This document shows, piece after piece, positions 1 through 5,109 of a stretch of DNA of 5,109 bases (position 1 is the stretch's first letter; each line of letters opens with the position of its first letter). Origin of the DNA: a virus; IMG/VR virus record IMGVR_UViG_3300045988_011322, one strand, 5' to 3'. The notes under the pieces were generated by a model. That model ran no database searches. It was given only the letters and a program-made list of their open reading frames with translations, and had not been told where the DNA came from. Both the position numbers and the translations under genes were made by a program.

Positions 1-55
1 AATAATCCTCATCTCGCTTCTGATAATAGGTTTATTCGTGTTCCCTGTGGTCAGT
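1..55. repeat. Terminal redundancy, left copy (identical to 5055-5109); assembly overlap of a circular genome
   Basis: Read directly: aataatcctcatctcgcttctgataataggtttattcgtgttccctgtggtcagt occurs at both ends. The reading frame of the Rep ORF is continuous across the junction. Confidence 0.97.
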
Positions 56-819
56 GTCTTGGTTGCAGGCTAGAACGTTCACGTCAATGGGCTGTTAGAT
101 GCGTGCATGAGGCTCGTGTGTCTGAATCTGCTTATTTCTTGACTTGTACTTTTGACAATTATCATTTGCCTGCCGATAAATCTTTGTCGATTAAATTCCA
201 TCAAACTTTTTTAAAGAATCTTCGTAGAGAGTTTGGTTCTGGAATTCGTTTTATCGGTTGTGGTGAATATGGTGAGTTACATGGCCGTCCCCATTATCAT
301 TACATTTTTTATAACATTGATTTGTCTGATAAAGTTTTTGCATTCCGTGCCGATGGTTATAATACCTATACTAGTCCTCGTTTTGGTAAAGTCTGGAAGT
401 ACGGTATGCATCTTATCGGTGAGTTTAGCTTTGATGCCGCTGCTTATGTCGCGCGCTACATAGTTAAAAAGCAGACTGGTTCTAATTCCAACGAACATTA
501 TAAAGGTCGAACCTCTGAATTTCTTGTAGCTTCTCGTAGGCCTGGCATTGGTGCAGCCTGGCTTGAGAAGTATGGTCAAGACGTTTATTCCAATGATTTT
601 GTTGTTATCAACGGCAGGAAGATGAGGCCTCCTCGCTTTTATGATAAGAAATTTTCTGAAAAGTATCCTGAATGGATTGACTACGTTAAAGAAAATCGTG
701 TTCAAAAAATGCTCTTTCATCTCGAAAATAACACGTTTGAGCGTTTGGTTGACCGTTGCAGGTGTCTTGAAGGAAAATACAAAACATTTCTTGGCAGAAA
801 GCTTGACAAACAATTGTGA
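1..819 (+). CDS. VP4: Replication initiator protein VP4, remainder of the gene. The full gene is 4962..5054 joined to 1..819, 303 aa. The track start at 103 is only an internal in-frame GTG.
   Basis: Frame 1 is open from base 1 to TGA 817-819. RCR motif 1-like FLTCTF is present. The HUH motif is HGRPHYHYIF, with HYH at 292-300. The paired catalytic tyrosines YVARYIVKK sit at 445-447 and 457-459, spaced Y-x3-Y as in phiX174 protein A. Confidence 0.93.
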   Translation, partial: NNPHLASDNRFIRVPCGQCLGCRLERSRQWAVRCVHEARVSESAYFLTCTFDNYHLPADKSLSIKFHQTFLKNLRREFGSGIRFIGCGEYGELHGRPHYHYIFYNIDLSDKVFAFRADGYNTYTSPRFGKVWKYGMHLIGEFSFDAAAYVARYIVKKQTGSNSNEHYKGRTSEFLVASRRPGIGAAWLEKYGQDVYSNDFVVINGRKMRPPRFYDKKFSEKYPEWIDYVKENRVQKMLFHLENNTFERLVDRCRCLEGKYKTFLGRKLDKQL

Positions 820-1461: not shown

Positions 1462-1926
1462 TTGAGGTTCAAGACTCCCTATGATGATATTGAATCCCAT
1501 GATCATTATGGAAAGGTGTTTAATTTGCCCTCACTTACTCTACAGGACGAGAAAGAGGAAACAGATATCAATTATATCGTCAATAAGTATTGCGATGGCC
1601 AGAAAGGCATTTCTACGCTTGATTTAGGCAATACTGATATTTACCAGTATCTCCAGTTCGGTGATGCTACGCTTCCTGGCGATTACGAAACTGCTCTTGA
1701 CCTTGTTTCTGGCGTTCGTGAAGAATTCTACACTTTGCCTTCGAAACTTCGTGCGGTATTCAACCATGACCCTATGGAATTTGTGCAACGTTTGAATCGT
1801 CCTGAAACTTTAAATTTGCTTCAGGAATACGGTCTTTATACTCCTGACGTAGTACAAGATTCTATCGTAGAAAAACAAAATAATAATGAAAGTAACAATT
1901 TAGGAGAAAATGAAGAAAAAAAATAA
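1462..1926 (+). CDS. VP3: Internal scaffolding protein VP3 (154 aa from TTG 1462)
   Basis: AAGGAGGTGA (1447-1456) lies 8 nt from its GGAGG core to in-frame TTG 1462. The product starts (M)RFKTPYDD. It contains TDINYIVNKY and the C-terminal LPSKLRAVFNHDPMEFVQ, which resemble conserved gokushovirus VP3 blocks. The track start ATG 1372 has no good SD and would translate through the terminator hairpin. Confidence 0.78.
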   Translation: MRFKTPYDDIESHDHYGKVFNLPSLTLQDEKEETDINYIVNKYCDGQKGISTLDLGNTDIYQYLQFGDATLPGDYETALDLVSGVREEFYTLPSKLRAVFNHDPMEFVQRLNRPETLNLLQEYGLYTPDVVQDSIVEKQNNNESNNLGENEEKK

Positions 1927-1931
1927 AAACA

Positions 1932-1980
1932 GCGGCAGTTGTGCCAGTAACCTACTTGATGTAACTGGCACAACTGACGC
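1932..1980 (+). repeat. Large intergenic stem-loop (inverted repeat) between VP3 and VP1
   Basis: cagttgtgccagt (1936-1948) is the exact reverse complement of actggcacaactg (1964-1976). The stem extends by gcg/cgc (1932-1934 with 1978-1980) across one G/A mismatch. The 15-nt loop is aacctacttgatgta. No T tract follows, so it is not a canonical terminator. Confidence 0.8.
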
Positions 1981-2054: not shown

Positions 2055-3794
2055 ATGTCACGTAGAATCCGTGTTAAAGGTCATCGTTTTTCAGATGCTC
2101 CTGCTATGTATATGCGTCGTACTAAGTTCGACCGCTCACACGTTTATAAGACTACCTTTGATTCAGGTAAGCTTATTCCTGTGTTTGTTGACGAGGTCTT
2201 GCCTGGCGACACTTCCAGTTTAAGAGTTAAGTATTTTTCTAGACTTGCTACCCCTGTAAAGCCTATCATGGATAATATCTACCTTGATTGGTTCTTCTTT
2301 TTTGTGCCAAACCGTCTTGTATGGAACCATTGGCAAAACTTCTGCTTTGAACAAGAAGACCCTGACGATTCCACTGATTACGTTTGCCCTACCACTTCTT
2401 TGATCGGTAAAGCAGGCGATACTTTGCATGGTGTAGGTACTCTTTGGGACTATTTTGGTCTTCCTACTGGCCTTCCTAATACTATATCTGGTATAAACGC
2501 ACTTCCTTTTCGTGGCGTTTATCTTATCTGGAATGAATGGTTCAGGGATGAAAACCTCCAAAAATCCGTAAAAATCCAGAAAGGTGATACCAATGAGGTT
2601 TTTGACGGTTCACGTGTAGCTGAACAACCTGAATGGCTTCAGGGAATTCCTGAAAGTTATCTTCCTTGTCCGCCTCGTGGCAAGCGGCATGATTATTTTA
2701 CTTCGGCCCTTCCTTGGACTCAGAAAGGTCCCGGTGTGTCTATAGGTTTAGCTGGTACAGCTCCTATAGTAAATCAAGGTACTTTGCCTAACTTCTTTCT
2801 TTCGTCAACGTCTAATCAGCTTGCCGCTGTAACCGCCTATGGCGGTGATGCTTCTAGCTCTGGTGGTTCAAGGGCTGCTCAAGGTACTGGTTCTATTACT
2901 TTTAACCGTGGTTCAGACTCTGATTGGTCTAATATTGGTGGCTTTGCTGGTAATACTTCTAATCGTATCACCATGACTGCTACTCCTGGCAGTTCTTTGC
3001 TTGGCAGCGAATCTTATGTCAATCTTGATGCATCTTCTATATTCACTATTAATAGTTTGCGTACTGCTTTCCAGATGCAGAAGTTTTACGAGCGCCTTGC
3101 TCGTGGCGGTAGTCGGTACACAGAAGTCTTGCGCTCTTTCTTTGGCGTAGTTTCTCCTGATGCTAGATTGCAACGTCCTGAATTTTTAGGCTCGTTTACT
3201 ATGATGATGAATATTAATCCTATAGCTCAGACTTCTAGTACCAACGACACGACACCGCAAGGCAATCTTTCTGCTTATGGTGTTACAGGTGCCAAGTTTC
3301 ATGGTTTTACGAAATCTTTCGTTGAGCATGGCTATGTTTTCGGTTTTTGTTGCGCTCGTGCTGACTTGACTTATCAGCAAGGTATCAATCGCATGTGGAC
3401 TAGGTCTACTGTTTACGATTGGTATTGGCCTACTTTTGCCCATCTAGGTGAGCAGGCTATTTTGCTTAAGGAAATTTATGCTACTGGCGATACCGAACAG
3501 GACAATTCTGTATTTGGCTATCAGGAACGTTATGCTGAGTATCGGTATAAACCTTCTATGATTTGTGGAAAATTTAGGTCTAATATCAAAGGTAATCTTG
3601 ATGTATGGCATTTGTCGCAGTATTTCGAAACTGCTCCTAAGTTGAATTCTGAATTCATTGAGGAAGATGTGCCTATAGGCCGTATTATAGCTGTTCCCAG
3701 TGAGCCTCAATTTTTGATTGATATAGGATTCAAGTACACTACTGTTCGTCCTATGCCTATGTTTGGTACTCCTGGCCTTGTTGATCATTTCTAA
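2055..3794 (+). CDS. VP1: Major capsid protein VP1 (phiX174 F-like jelly roll, gokushovirus type), 579 aa
   Basis: AAGGAG (2043-2048) lies 6 nt before ATG 2055. Conserved blocks are KFDRSHVYKTTFDSGKLIPVFVDEVLPGDT, FFFVPNRLVW, TINSLRTAFQMQKFYERLARGGSRYTEVLRSFFGV..DARLQRPEFLG and VWHLSQ. Confidence 0.97.
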   Translation: MSRRIRVKGHRFSDAPAMYMRRTKFDRSHVYKTTFDSGKLIPVFVDEVLPGDTSSLRVKYFSRLATPVKPIMDNIYLDWFFFFVPNRLVWNHWQNFCFEQEDPDDSTDYVCPTTSLIGKAGDTLHGVGTLWDYFGLPTGLPNTISGINALPFRGVYLIWNEWFRDENLQKSVKIQKGDTNEVFDGSRVAEQPEWLQGIPESYLPCPPRGKRHDYFTSALPWTQKGPGVSIGLAGTAPIVNQGTLPNFFLSSTSNQLAAVTAYGGDASSSGGSRAAQGTGSITFNRGSDSDWSNIGGFAGNTSNRITMTATPGSSLLGSESYVNLDASSIFTINSLRTAFQMQKFYERLARGGSRYTEVLRSFFGVVSPDARLQRPEFLGSFTMMMNINPIAQTSSTNDTTPQGNLSAYGVTGAKFHGFTKSFVEHGYVFGFCCARADLTYQQGINRMWTRSTVYDWYWPTFAHLGEQAILLKEIYATGDTEQDNSVFGYQERYAEYRYKPSMICGKFRSNIKGNLDVWHLSQYFETAPKLNSEFIEEDVPIGRIIAVPSEPQFLIDIGFKYTTVRPMPMFGTPGLVDHF

Positions 3795-3806: not shown

Positions 3807-4565
3807 ATGTCTTGGTTATCTGACGCAGCTGGTTCTATAGCTGGTTCTATATTTGGTTCCGCTGTTCAGGGTCATTATAATTCTGCCGCTTCAGCTCAAC
3901 AAAATGCGTGGAATGTTGAAAATTATAAACATCGTTATCAATGGGCTATGGAAGATATGCGCAATGCTGGTCTTAATCCTATTCTTGCCGCTACTAATGG
4001 TATTGGTGGTAGCATTGCAGGTGCATCTGCTGCTAGTATCGGTATGTCTGATGTTGCTGGCAATCTTAGTTCGGCTCGTGGCGTTTCTGCCGCTTCTAAA
4101 CAGGCTAAAGTAGCTGAGAATCTTTCTGCAAGTCAGATTGAGAAGAATATTGCTGATGCTAAAGCTTCTTCTGCTAATGCTGGTCTTGCTACTGCTAATA
4201 CTACTAATGCAGGTCTTCAAAACAAGATTTTGCAGAATGATGTTGATTTTAAGACTAAAACTTTTGACCAGCGTGTACAATTTGAATTTGACCGTATGAA
4301 AGCTGAAATTGATAATCTTCATAAGCTCGGTCAGATGTATGATGCCAATTCTTTAAATGCAACTGCTTCTGCTTTGCGTGCCAATTCTGCGGCCGCTTTT
4401 GATAATGTTCAAACGGAGCTTGCAGGCTATGAACGTGATTTCTATAAGTCCCTTGGTGACCTTGGAGCTGATGCTAAAGTTATGGGTCCTGCTATTGGTA
4501 AAGGTGTTGCCGGTGTTATTGGTAAAGGCATCGGATTCTTGAGAAAACGTTATTTTGGAAGGTGA
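3807..4565 (+). CDS. VP2: Minor capsid / DNA pilot protein VP2 (252 aa)
   Basis: TAAGGAG (3792-3798, containing the VP1 stop) lies 8 nt before ATG 3807. The N-terminus is Gly/Ser/Ala-rich. The block NYKHRYQWAMEDMRNAGLNPILA is characteristic of gokushovirus VP2. The central region is Ala/Asn-rich and looks coiled. Confidence 0.9.
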   Translation: MSWLSDAAGSIAGSIFGSAVQGHYNSAASAQQNAWNVENYKHRYQWAMEDMRNAGLNPILAATNGIGGSIAGASAASIGMSDVAGNLSSARGVSAASKQAKVAENLSASQIEKNIADAKASSANAGLATANTTNAGLQNKILQNDVDFKTKTFDQRVQFEFDRMKAEIDNLHKLGQMYDANSLNATASALRANSAAAFDNVQTELAGYERDFYKSLGDLGADAKVMGPAIGKGVAGVIGKGIGFLRKRYFGR

Positions 4566-4570
4566 TTTTT

Positions 4571-4810
4571 ATGTCAAACAAAACTACCATGATTCTTACT
4601 TTTATCGTTTCTGTCGTTGTTCCCTTTATTCAAGAAGTTGTAGATTTGATTGAAGCTTTAAAAGGTAAGTCCACTGCTAACTTAGTTACTGCCAAGAAGG
4701 TGGCTTCTGACTTTCAAGCCGATGTTAGTGAAGTTCTTACTCCAGTTTCTTCTAAAAAAGATTCTTCTAAAGGTTCTTCTCGTTTTTTCGGTTCTTGGAG
4801 AGATAAATAA
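4571..4810 (+). CDS. Small hypothetical protein (79 aa) with a hydrophobic N-terminal segment and a basic Ser/Lys-rich tail
   Basis: GGAAGGTGA (4557-4565) overlaps the VP2 stop and precedes ATG 4571. The track's GTG 4562 is an alternative start. Product: MSNKTTMILTFIVSVVVPFIQEVVDLIEAL...SSKKDSSKGSSRFFGSWRDK. Third positions are T-rich as in neighbouring genes. The stop TAA 4808-4810 shares its last A with the next ATG. Confidence 0.6.
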   Translation: MSNKTTMILTFIVSVVVPFIQEVVDLIEALKGKSTANLVTAKKVASDFQADVSEVLTPVSSKKDSSKGSSRFFGSWRDK

Positions 4811-4920
4811 TGCGTAGACGCAGGATTAGCAAAAGAGGTTCTCGTCGCCTCTTCCGCCGTACATCCAAACCCAGACGTAGAAATATTCGTAGAGTACAGC
4901 GAGGCGGATTTAGGATTTGA
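4810..4920 (+). CDS. 36-aa arginine-rich DNA-binding/packaging protein (phiX174 J / gokushovirus ORF8-like); not in the supplied ORF track
   Basis: ATG 4810 overlaps the upstream stop (TAATG). Translation is MRRRRISKRGSRRLFRRTSKPRRRNIRRVQRGGFRI, with stop TGA 4918-4920. It has 16 Arg and 2 Lys in 36 residues. The position after VP2 and the RGGFRI ending match my recollection of gokushovirus ORF8 proteins. Confidence 0.8.
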   Translation: MRRRRISKRGSRRLFRRTSKPRRRNIRRVQRGGFRI

Positions 4921-4945
4921 CAATTCCGTTATAATCCGTTATAAT
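4917..4945 (+). promoter_or_regulatory. Perfect consensus sigma70-type promoter (TTGACA, 17 nt, TATAAT) upstream of VP4
   Basis: TTGACA is at 4917-4922 and overlaps TGA 4918-4920 of the basic-protein ORF. The spacer 4923-4939 is exactly 17 nt. TATAAT is at 4940-4945. The predicted start is near 4952, about 10 nt before the VP4 ATG 4962. Confidence 0.7.
4925..4944 (+). repeat. 10-nt tandem direct repeat (tccgttataa x2), each copy carrying a TATAAT box
   Basis: tccgttataa at 4925-4934 is repeated exactly at 4935-4944. TATAAT occurs at 4930-4935 and 4940-4945. ccgtta (4936-4941, or the earlier copy at 4926-4931) can pair with taacgg (4949-4954). Confidence 0.9.
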
Positions 4946-4961
4946 CTGTAACGGTGATGTT

Positions 4962-5109
4962 ATGGTTTGTTTTAATCCTATGCTTATGACTGATGTTGTT
5001 GGAGCGTATACTAAAAATGGTAAACAGCATCGTGCTTTCTATGGTTCTTTGGCCAATAATCCTCATCTCGCTTCTGATAATAGGTTTATTCGTGTTCCCT
5101 GTGGTCAGT
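4962..5109 (+). CDS. VP4: Replication initiator protein VP4 (HUH rolling-circle endonuclease), N-terminal part; continues at position 56 through the circular junction
   Basis: ATG 4962 follows GGTGA (4953-4957). Translation is MVCFNPMLMTDVVGAYTKNGKQHRAFYGSLANNPHLASDNRFIRVPCGQ, which runs in frame (5055 is equivalent to 1) into CLGCRLERSRQWAVRC. This is the Cys-rich N-terminus typical of microvirus Rep proteins. Confidence 0.85.
   Translation, partial: MVCFNPMLMTDVVGAYTKNGKQHRAFYGSLANNPHLASDNRFIRVPCGQ
5055..5109. repeat. Terminal redundancy, right copy (identical to 1-55)
   Basis: Exact 55/55 match to the window start. Confidence 0.97.

Follow-up and report, generated by a model that had tools for sequence, protein, structure and literature searches.

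A conserved stem-loop downstream of VP3 is the probable viral-strand replication origin of gokushoviruses

The window analysed here, a 5,109-nucleotide (nt) stretch of DNA from IMG/VR virus record IMGVR_UViG_3300045988_011322, is a complete circular gokushovirus genome of 5,054 nt, in which positions 5055-5109 duplicate positions 1-55 (a 55-nt terminal redundancy). Every gene of this genome lies on the + strand, and its nearest GenBank records are gokushoviruses from human, pig and dog gut, with approximately 75% nucleotide identity across half of the genome. The subject of this study is a hairpin at 1932-1980, which an initial annotation, made from the letters of the DNA alone, had placed in the intergenic region between VP3 and VP1 and had read as a candidate replication origin. 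VP3, the internal scaffolding protein, occupies 1462..1926 (Pfam Chlamy_scaf, E = 7e-22) and VP1 occupies 2055-3794 (Pfam Phage_F); the element does lie between them, starting 5 nt past the VP3 stop (1926) and ending 74 nt before the VP1 start (2055). The enzyme that we propose to nick it is VP4, the Rep protein, which is encoded at 4962..5054 and then 1..819, across the junction of the circle, and matches Pfam PF23343 (REP_ORF2-G2P, E = 1.2e-15).

The element reads GCG-G-CAGTTGTGCCAGT-A-AC CTACTTGAT GT-A-ACTGGCACAACTG-A-CGC. The 13-base-pair (bp) perfect stem described initially is formed by 1936-1948 paired with 1964-1976. Outward of this core a G.A mismatch is followed by three pairs, which accounts for the 16 bp with one mismatch also described, and inward of it an A.A mismatch is followed by two pairs; a repeat finder returned 20-nt arms that are 90% complementary and enclose 9 nt. 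If the 13-bp stem is taken as the boundary, the loop has 15 nt (AACCTACTTGATGTA, 1949-1963). The loop string of the initial annotation was right in containing ACTTGAT and wrong in its length of 16 nt, the first base of the 3' arm having been included. As had been claimed, this is the longest perfect hairpin of the genome, followed by a terminator-like hairpin of 11 bp at 1381-1406. Of 300 dinucleotide shuffles of the genome, only one produced a perfect stem of 13 bp or longer, and the fold energy of 1932-1980 as single-stranded DNA (-20.7 kcal/mol, z = -7.6) was equalled in none of 200 shuffles; on the virion-sense strand, no local fold is more stable. ACTTGAT occurs a single time in the window, at 1954-1960 on the + strand, inside the loop. 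Taken alone, this 7-mer is not significant, since 0.82 chance occurrences are expected per genome, in agreement with the earlier estimate of roughly one.

Three parts can be distinguished in the element, all on the + strand: a 5' arm (1932..1951) that includes the perfect core at 1936-1948, a loop nonamer, CTACTTGAT, at 1952..1960 that includes ACTTGAT, and a 3' arm with its tail at 1961..1980. The last of these, defined by the weight matrix and the consensus described below, holds GTAACTG (1961-1967) and CTGACGC (1974-1980); the subfamily consensus for this part is ATGTAACTG-N6-CTGACACC. At 1949, the 5' arm reads GTAAC in the window and GTTAC in all close relatives, and the resulting A.A mismatch widens the loop from 9 to 15 nt. 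The mismatch is private to the window, since its three closest IMG/VR relatives have GTTAC, and the change is probably tolerated, because most distant relatives lack those top pairs.

We then looked for the element in relatives of the window, as the initial annotation had suggested. Four GenBank genomes carry it in the same VP3-VP1 position (GGCGGCACCTACACCAGTTAC TTACTTGAT GTAACTGGTGTAGGTGACGC and variants), with a stem sequence unlike that of the window that pairs nevertheless and with an identical loop and stem top. The three closest IMG/VR relatives (VP1 84-91% identical) show a compensatory T-A to C-G change with respect to the window. At least 120 IMG/VR contigs of about 5 kilobases contain the 19-mer GTTACTTACTTGATGTAAC without any change, and the contigs listed include lineages whose VP1 is merely 44-52% identical to that of the window. 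In these contigs the stems are unrelated in sequence but complementary, and the 3' arm is succeeded by a tail, (G/C)TGAC(A/G)C, which is present even when unpaired. Since an exact 19-mer scan of IMG/VR yields a sample selected by the motif itself, three further samples were picked by capsid homology alone: 80 contigs similar to the VP1 of the window, 80 similar to the VP1 of Chp2 (55-84% identity), and 71 loci taken from genome assemblies of bacteria and, in a few cases, archaea. Of the 80 Chp2-type contigs, 71 have a perfect stem of 7 bp or more whose loop includes CT[TA]G, and most of the other nine were seen on inspection to have imperfect stems or variant loops (L204 CTCGAT, L245 CTTGTT). 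With a leave-one-out weight matrix and a threshold of at least 15 bits, the element was detected on the gene strand of 77/80 and 66/80 capsid-selected genomes, as compared with 0/80 and 1/80 on the opposite strand. The element is thus nearly universal and strongly biased to one strand.

A covariance model built from 80 elements matched 54 of the 71 independent assembly loci at E <= 0.01, the misses being mostly fragments. It also matched phiMH2K, which was absent from the seed (E = 4e-7). All four classical isolates carry the element, namely Chp1 and Chp2 from Chlamydia, SpV4 from Spiroplasma and phiMH2K from Bdellovibrio: it reads CTAGCGTATAACAG tctacttgat CTGTTATACGCTAG gtgat in Chp2, GGGCTATAT cctcttggct ATATAGCCC gagcgacac in Chp1, TGGGGCATAT attacttgttata ATATGCCCCA ttgacgac in SpV4 and GTTCGGCTAC ggaccctacttgttgtaa GTAGCCGAAC tcacag in phiMH2K. 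The GenBank record of Chp1 has four annotated hairpins (h1-h4), none of which is this element. The hairpin and its loop motif are therefore found both in relatives at about 75% nucleotide identity and in relatives at 28-50% capsid identity.

Conservation of the stem could be separated from that of the loop and tail on an alignment of 80 diverse elements. The 14-pair helix was 77.5% paired, as compared with 60.5% in shuffles, and both sides had changed in 12 of the 14 pairs; these are the compensatory substitutions that had been named at the outset as a check. The covariation score was 0.428 against 0.143 in shuffles, none of 500 being as high, and did not exceed 0.117 when the partners were slid. 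The stem is under selection as a structure. Conservation is asymmetric, however: the 5' arm is kept solely as the complement of the 3' arm, whereas it is the sequence itself that is kept in the loop (ctACTTGATGT) and on the 3' side (AAcTG..., then cTGACACC), and the loop motif, whose conservation had likewise been named as a check, is of the CTTGAT type. Across gokushoviruses the consensus of the element is TccCtACTTGATGTAAcTGtgCtgAcTGACACC, with the loop pattern CT(T/A)G(A/T)T and the 3' tail GTAACTG..TGACACC. In the capsid-selected sample the loop hexamers were CTTGAT (53), CTAGAT (8), CTTGTT (7), CTTGTC (2) and CTTGAC (1), the CTAGAT type having arisen repeatedly. In 73 of 74 distinct elements, 13 nt separate ACTTGAT from (G/C)TGAC.

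The placement of the element is nearly as constant as its sequence. It lies 3' of the VP3 stop in 73 of 78 genomes, at a spacing of mostly 15-120 nt (range 6-669), and is non-coding in almost all genomes. In 66 genomes the first gene recognised after the element is VP4, and in 5 it is VP1; these 5 include the window's family, whose order VP4-VP5-VP3-element-VP1-VP2 is that of the enterobacterial prophages. This proximity to the VP3 stop, which persists where the downstream gene is VP1 rather than VP4, speaks for a role at the RNA level, in which the hairpin would form the 3' end of a VP3-containing transcript as a terminator, a processing site or a 3' stabiliser; an A-rich run before the hairpin in the window's family points the same way. 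We nonetheless regard such a role as very unlikely. In the window no T tract follows the stem on the + strand, as had been observed initially, and in relatives four or more T follow the stem in only 4 of 71 cases, the T fraction there being 0.19. Loops of 8-18 nt in relatives (9-15 nt in the window) are too large for intrinsic terminators, which have a GC-rich stem, a loop of 3-8 nt and a T tract directly after it, and an mRNA stabiliser could do without invariance in the loop and tail. A terminator consensus scan did not report the element on the + strand, and with a cutoff of E <= 1 no Rfam family matched any part of the window. In only 3 of 71 cases is VP3 followed by a terminator of its own ahead of the element, which is no argument either way. 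We also considered an antisense terminator and rejected it: the T-rich run that follows the hairpin on the - strand is confined to the window's family and represents the Lys/Glu-rich tail of VP3.

The loop motif invites comparison with phiX174. The origin of that phage, as quoted in the initial annotation, does stand at 4299-4328 of NC_001422 (CAACTTGATATTAATAACACTATAGACCAC), where rep_origin is annotated at 4306, and cleavage falls between G4305 and A4306 (bioRxiv 10.64898/2026.07.25.740675). The 30-nt (+) origin of phiX174 and G4 (CAACTTG^ATATTAATAACACTATAGACCAC), which is cut by protein A, and the gokushovirus element have the ACTTGAT core in common, on the virion-sense strand. When the phiX174 core CAACTTG^ATA is set against CTACTTGATG of the window, 8 of 10 positions are identical and ACTTGAT is exact. 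Downstream, phiX174 has ACTTGAT-N13-TAGAC and gokushoviruses have ACTTGAT-N13-GTGAC, so that the spacing to the GAC is equal, and the gokushovirus TGACACC block stands at the same distance as TAGACCAC of phiX174. A weight matrix made only from the capsid-selected gokushovirus elements ranked the mapped phiX174 (+) origin first among 10,772 positions on both strands, with 7.3 bits as compared with 3.9 for the next. Once the ACTTGAT columns were removed, the same origin ranked 46th of 10,772 (top 0.4%); most of the signal therefore comes from the core, and the downstream block contributes modestly. The covariance model misses the phiX174 origin, because phiX174 has no hairpin.

The likeness extends to the enzyme. 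The initial annotation had attributed to VP4 the HUH and Y-x3-Y active site of protein A, and both motifs are in place: HYH at amino acids (aa) 129-131 (nt 292-300) and YVARY at aa 180-184 (nt 445-459), on the + strand. HYH and AAAYVARYIVKK (AYVARYIVKK) of VP4 compare with HFH and GFYVAKYVNKK of phiX174 protein A, the catalytic tyrosines of which are Y343 and Y347. The Reps of Bullavirinae and Gokushovirinae are reported to be monophyletic and each other's sole relatives (PMC6668415).

Prophages and contigs with the element were found in Phascolarctobacterium faecium DSM 14760, Sutterella, Intestinirhabdus alba, Desulfovibrionaceae, Gastranaerophilales, Treponema and Brevinema, and the prophages span at least seven bacterial groups. 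Because the element is kept across hosts of many groups, its recognition by a phage protein fits better than recognition by host factors. This bears on the proposal that the hairpin is solely a complementary-strand (-) origin, which would recruit host priming (the PriA primosome, primase or RNA polymerase) and would not be a VP4 nick site. Intergenic hairpins of phiX174, G4 and M13 act as complementary-strand origins. The gokushovirus hairpin resembles the phiX174 and G4 sites in being intergenic and beside structural genes; its standing as the most stable local fold of the virion-sense strand suits this function, and its orientation on that strand fits a (-) origin as well as it fits a (+) origin. 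Moreover, hairpins of other small microviruses have been suggested for this role: the reekeekee- and roodoodooviruses, small Microviridae, have conserved intergenic hairpins with compensatory substitutions and conserved loops, which were read as possible complementary-strand origins, their function being left open and no link to the phiX174 nick motif being made (PMC9865509). These viruses belong to other clades, and the likeness of their hairpins to the gokushovirus element is drawn from the published description.

Several observations make an exclusive (-) origin function unlikely in our view. A site recognised by the host would hardly be expected to keep the same loop and tail across Chlamydia, Spiroplasma, Bdellovibrio, Negativicutes, Enterobacteriaceae and spirochaetes; the conserved loop is the nick motif of phiX174 and of pC194-type plasmids; and a CTG that could serve an E. 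coli-type primase is present in just about 31 of 70 elements. Both alternatives that the initial annotation had left standing, a priming site and an mRNA stabiliser or processing site, thus fit less well than an origin nicked by VP4, given the missing T tract, the 8-18-nt loops, the strict sequence and the many host phyla. The same hairpin may additionally start complementary-strand synthesis.

The tail and the gene that follows the element raise the question of whether another protein binds here, be it a regulator of the downstream gene, the capsid or a J-like protein at a packaging signal, or a protein acting at a recombination site. The tail, xTGACA, matches the -35 hexamer at 5 of 6 positions, and the element precedes VP4 (usually) or VP1. 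The first T is the best-conserved position of a -35 box, but it stands before TGACA in just 2 of 70 elements; there is no conserved -10, and information past the tail is about 0 bits. A -35 box in the tail TGACAC is consequently unlikely, and we rejected it. As for recombination, phage dif motifs are used for XerCD integration (PMC7062461). The element has no similarity to dif, a 28-bp motif of two 11-bp arms and a 6-bp spacer, and a dif site was rejected on position as well: in contig L271 the dif-like motifs lie at 1974 and 10629, whereas the elements lie at 3595 and 7926, between VP3 and VP1. Altogether, we give a binding site for some other protein only a very slight probability. The same contig (Intestinirhabdus alba NZ_WMJZ01000007, 1974-10629) holds two different gokushovirus prophages in tandem, with the dif-like motifs on either side, and both are ordered VP4-VP5-VP3-element-VP1-VP2, as in the window; their elements occupy 3573-3625 and 7904-7956 of L271. 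The presence of the element in enterobacterial temperate gokushoviruses makes it experimentally tractable, since close Enterobacteriaceae relatives of the EC6098-type phage carry it.

Taken together, the near-universal presence of the hairpin, the covariation of its stem, the conservation of its loop and the matrix match to the phiX174 origin support the replication-origin reading of the initial annotation. We consider it likely that the hairpin at 1932-1980 serves this gokushovirus as the (+) origin from which rolling-circle replication of the viral strand starts, and that VP4 nicks it between G1958 and A1959, the bond equivalent to G4305/A4306 of phiX174. Its counterparts are likewise the likely origins of the gokushovirus subfamily as a whole. 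VP4 cleavage, the exact scissile bond and a binding role of the 3' tail are what we infer by comparison with known initiators, and the mechanism that we propose is modelled on protein A and other HUH endonucleases (PMC5714925). In the supercoiled replicative form, the inverted repeat would open or extrude, so that the coding (virion-sense) strand presents the loop CTACTTGAT. VP4, which like protein A is an HUH endonuclease with two tyrosines spaced Y-x3-Y, would recognise the conserved 3' half (ATGTAACTG ... CTGAC(A/G)C), the 3' arm and tail being the binding or 'key' part of the origin. It would then cut CTACTTG^AT at G1958/A1959, become joined to the 5' phosphate and stay on the 5' end, while the 3'-OH would prime synthesis by host enzymes. 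Once a round is complete, VP4 would use its second tyrosine to cut and re-join the hairpin that has re-formed in the displaced strand, which would yield a circular + strand for packaging.

A number of points weigh against this proposal. The putative nick site is assigned by analogy with phiX174. Outside the 7-nt core, the likeness to the phiX174 origin is modest, just 17 of 30 positions matching the gokushovirus consensus. The phiX174 origin, about 30 nt in all, is tripartite, with an AT-rich spacer between the recognition sequence and a downstream 'key' sequence; in the gokushovirus element the 3' stem arm, which is not AT-rich, takes the place of that spacer. The phiX174 origin also has no flanking inverted repeat or hairpin, whereas the gokushovirus element is borne on one. 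The loop hexamer varies right beside the presumed scissile bond (CTAGAT, CTTGTT, CTTGTC, CTCGAT), and its type shows no tighter link to the relatedness of Rep than to that of the capsid, the nearest neighbour sharing a rare type in 7 of 17 cases by VP4 and in 6 of 17 by VP1, a comparison that favours neither. The constant placement just 3' of VP3, even where gene order is altered (73/78), is the one feature not predicted by a pure origin model; this linkage could reflect a role at the transcript level or merely inherited synteny. Finally, the element of L232 (503-545) and the loop of L305 (2483-2538) are oriented opposite to the genes, in the usual place after VP3 or VP2, and if this orientation is real the nick would fall on the non-coding strand. 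A second copy of the L232 junction was not found in IMG/VR, so that the flipped element has no independent confirmation, and the flip is possibly an artefact of amplification or assembly at the inverted repeat.

How the element relates to phiX174 can be stated more specifically. We lean towards the view that it is a subfamily-wide, as yet unmapped (+) origin homologous to that of phiX174, presented in an intergenic stem-loop whose 9-nt loop would be cut between positions 7 and 8; this we hold with somewhat less assurance than the origin assignment itself. The two differ in location, the phiX174 origin lying inside gene A and the gokushovirus element between genes, after VP3 (in the window and in 73/78 genomes). 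If the homology is true, the hairpin-borne origin could be ancestral in Microviridae and the hairpin-less gene-A origin of phiX174 derived.

Two other systems resemble the element in part. The double-strand origins of pC194/pUB110-family plasmids, whose Reps are likewise HUH enzymes, have the nick motif CTTGATA, which in pC194 is cut between G and A, and thus share CTTGAT with the gokushovirus loop. The pC194 origin is printed as TTCTTTCTTATCTTGATAATAAGGGTAACTATTGCC..., and after CTTGATA it continues with GGGTAACTA...TAGTTACCC, an inverted repeat that contains GTAAC (PMC7072734). In gokushoviruses CTTGAT is followed directly by GTAACTG, and this likeness in GTAAC may be a coincidence or may reflect shared recognition of DNA by Rep. 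The plasmid differs in that its nick motif stands beside the inverted repeat, whereas the gokushovirus motif stands within the loop, and in that its Rep belongs to Pfam Rep_1, whereas VP4 matches PF23343.

The origins of CRESS-DNA viruses (geminiviruses and circoviruses) have a conserved loop nonanucleotide of the (T/N)A(G/N)TATTAC type, which is cut between positions 7 and 8. Their architecture is that of the gokushovirus element, an intergenic hairpin with a covarying stem and an invariant loop, although the nick in the loop is in our case a proposal. In the window's family the loop is also 9 nt long (CTACTTG^AT), and the proposed cut between positions 7 and 8 would reproduce the geometry of the nonanucleotide. 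In sequence, however, the CRESS loop (NANTATTAC type) is unrelated to the gokushovirus CTACTTGAT. CRESS Reps have one catalytic tyrosine and a superfamily 3 (SF3) helicase, and their origins have iterons, whereas gokushoviruses have a single conserved tail; in VP4 (303 aa, Y-x3-Y) Pfam finds no helicase domain. The gokushovirus element can thus be described as phiX174-type in its core motif, strand and enzyme and as CRESS-type in its presentation on a stem-loop. It is a strict member of neither class, because it is intergenic, hairpin-borne and without an AT-rich spacer, which sets it apart from phiX174, and because its loop and its type of Rep set it apart from CRESS-DNA viruses.

In gut, marine and soil viromes, few single-stranded DNA phages are as abundant as gokushoviruses, and to our knowledge their replication has so far been inferred entirely from phiX174. 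Searches of the full-text literature, which did not take in the original papers on Chp1, Chp2, SpV4 and phiMH2K, turned up neither a gokushovirus origin nor this hairpin, the nearest account being that of the hairpins in the two other microvirus clades (PMC9865509), and it appears that nobody has mapped the origin site. Since the element is conserved, spans about 45 nt and has a defined candidate nick site, the question of the origin becomes directly testable. For thousands of metagenomic genomes the element also offers a marker of strand and a natural zero coordinate and, if our proposal is true, a universal landmark for the strand, start coordinate and completeness of microvirus genomes. The element may further be viewed as a minimal cis-acting cassette for the engineering of gokushovirus replicons, and it forms a link between three designs of origin, those of phiX174, pC194-type plasmids and CRESS-DNA viruses.

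Some contigs have their ends close to the element. L062 and L101 start 4-5 nt before the putative nick, and in the related L042, L066, L069, L080, L099 and L106 this putative site is 62-63 nt from an end. We considered contig ends as a proxy for nicking, there being some excess of ends within 80 nt of the element, and set this aside; assembly breaks at the inverted repeat are the simpler reading, because most such contigs come from one metagenome and one lineage. An apparent recombination junction at ACTTGAT in L101 was likewise dismissed, as an artefact of circularising a contig that starts there and has a terminal repeat.

The remaining features of the window, all on the + strand, are a small open reading frame (ORF) at 820-1101, VP5 at 1079-1357 (Pfam Phage_ORF5), VP2 at 3807-4565 and two small ORFs after VP2. 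One of the latter, at 4810-4920, encodes 36 aa extremely rich in arginine (MRRRRISKRGSRRLFRR...) and resembles DNA-binding proteins of the J/ORF8 type; a similar ORF is present in the Intestinirhabdus prophage. Between VP5 and VP3, at 1368-1419, lies the terminator-like hairpin mentioned above, in which an 11-bp stem (1381-1406) is followed by T7 within an inverted repeat with 24-nt arms; it is the sole canonical candidate for an intrinsic terminator near the origin-like element. A second hairpin, at 1991-2033 (TAAACCTTAA ... TTAAGGTTTA, with a conserved TTTAGG in its loop), stands between the origin-like element and the ribosome-binding site of VP1 and is kept in the relatives L001-L004 with other stem sequences (AAACCTAATAAT/ATTATTGGGTTT). 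It is a candidate for a complementary-strand origin or for an element of VP1 expression. Just 5' of the VP4 start, at 4917-4960, there is a perfect sigma-70 consensus (TTGACA, 17 nt, TATAAT; 12/12). Overlapping it are two tandem copies of a direct repeat (TCCGTTATAA TCCGTTATAA) and then TCTGTAACGG, so that CCGTTA...TAACGG forms an inverted repeat; these repeats could be an operator that controls the expression of Rep.

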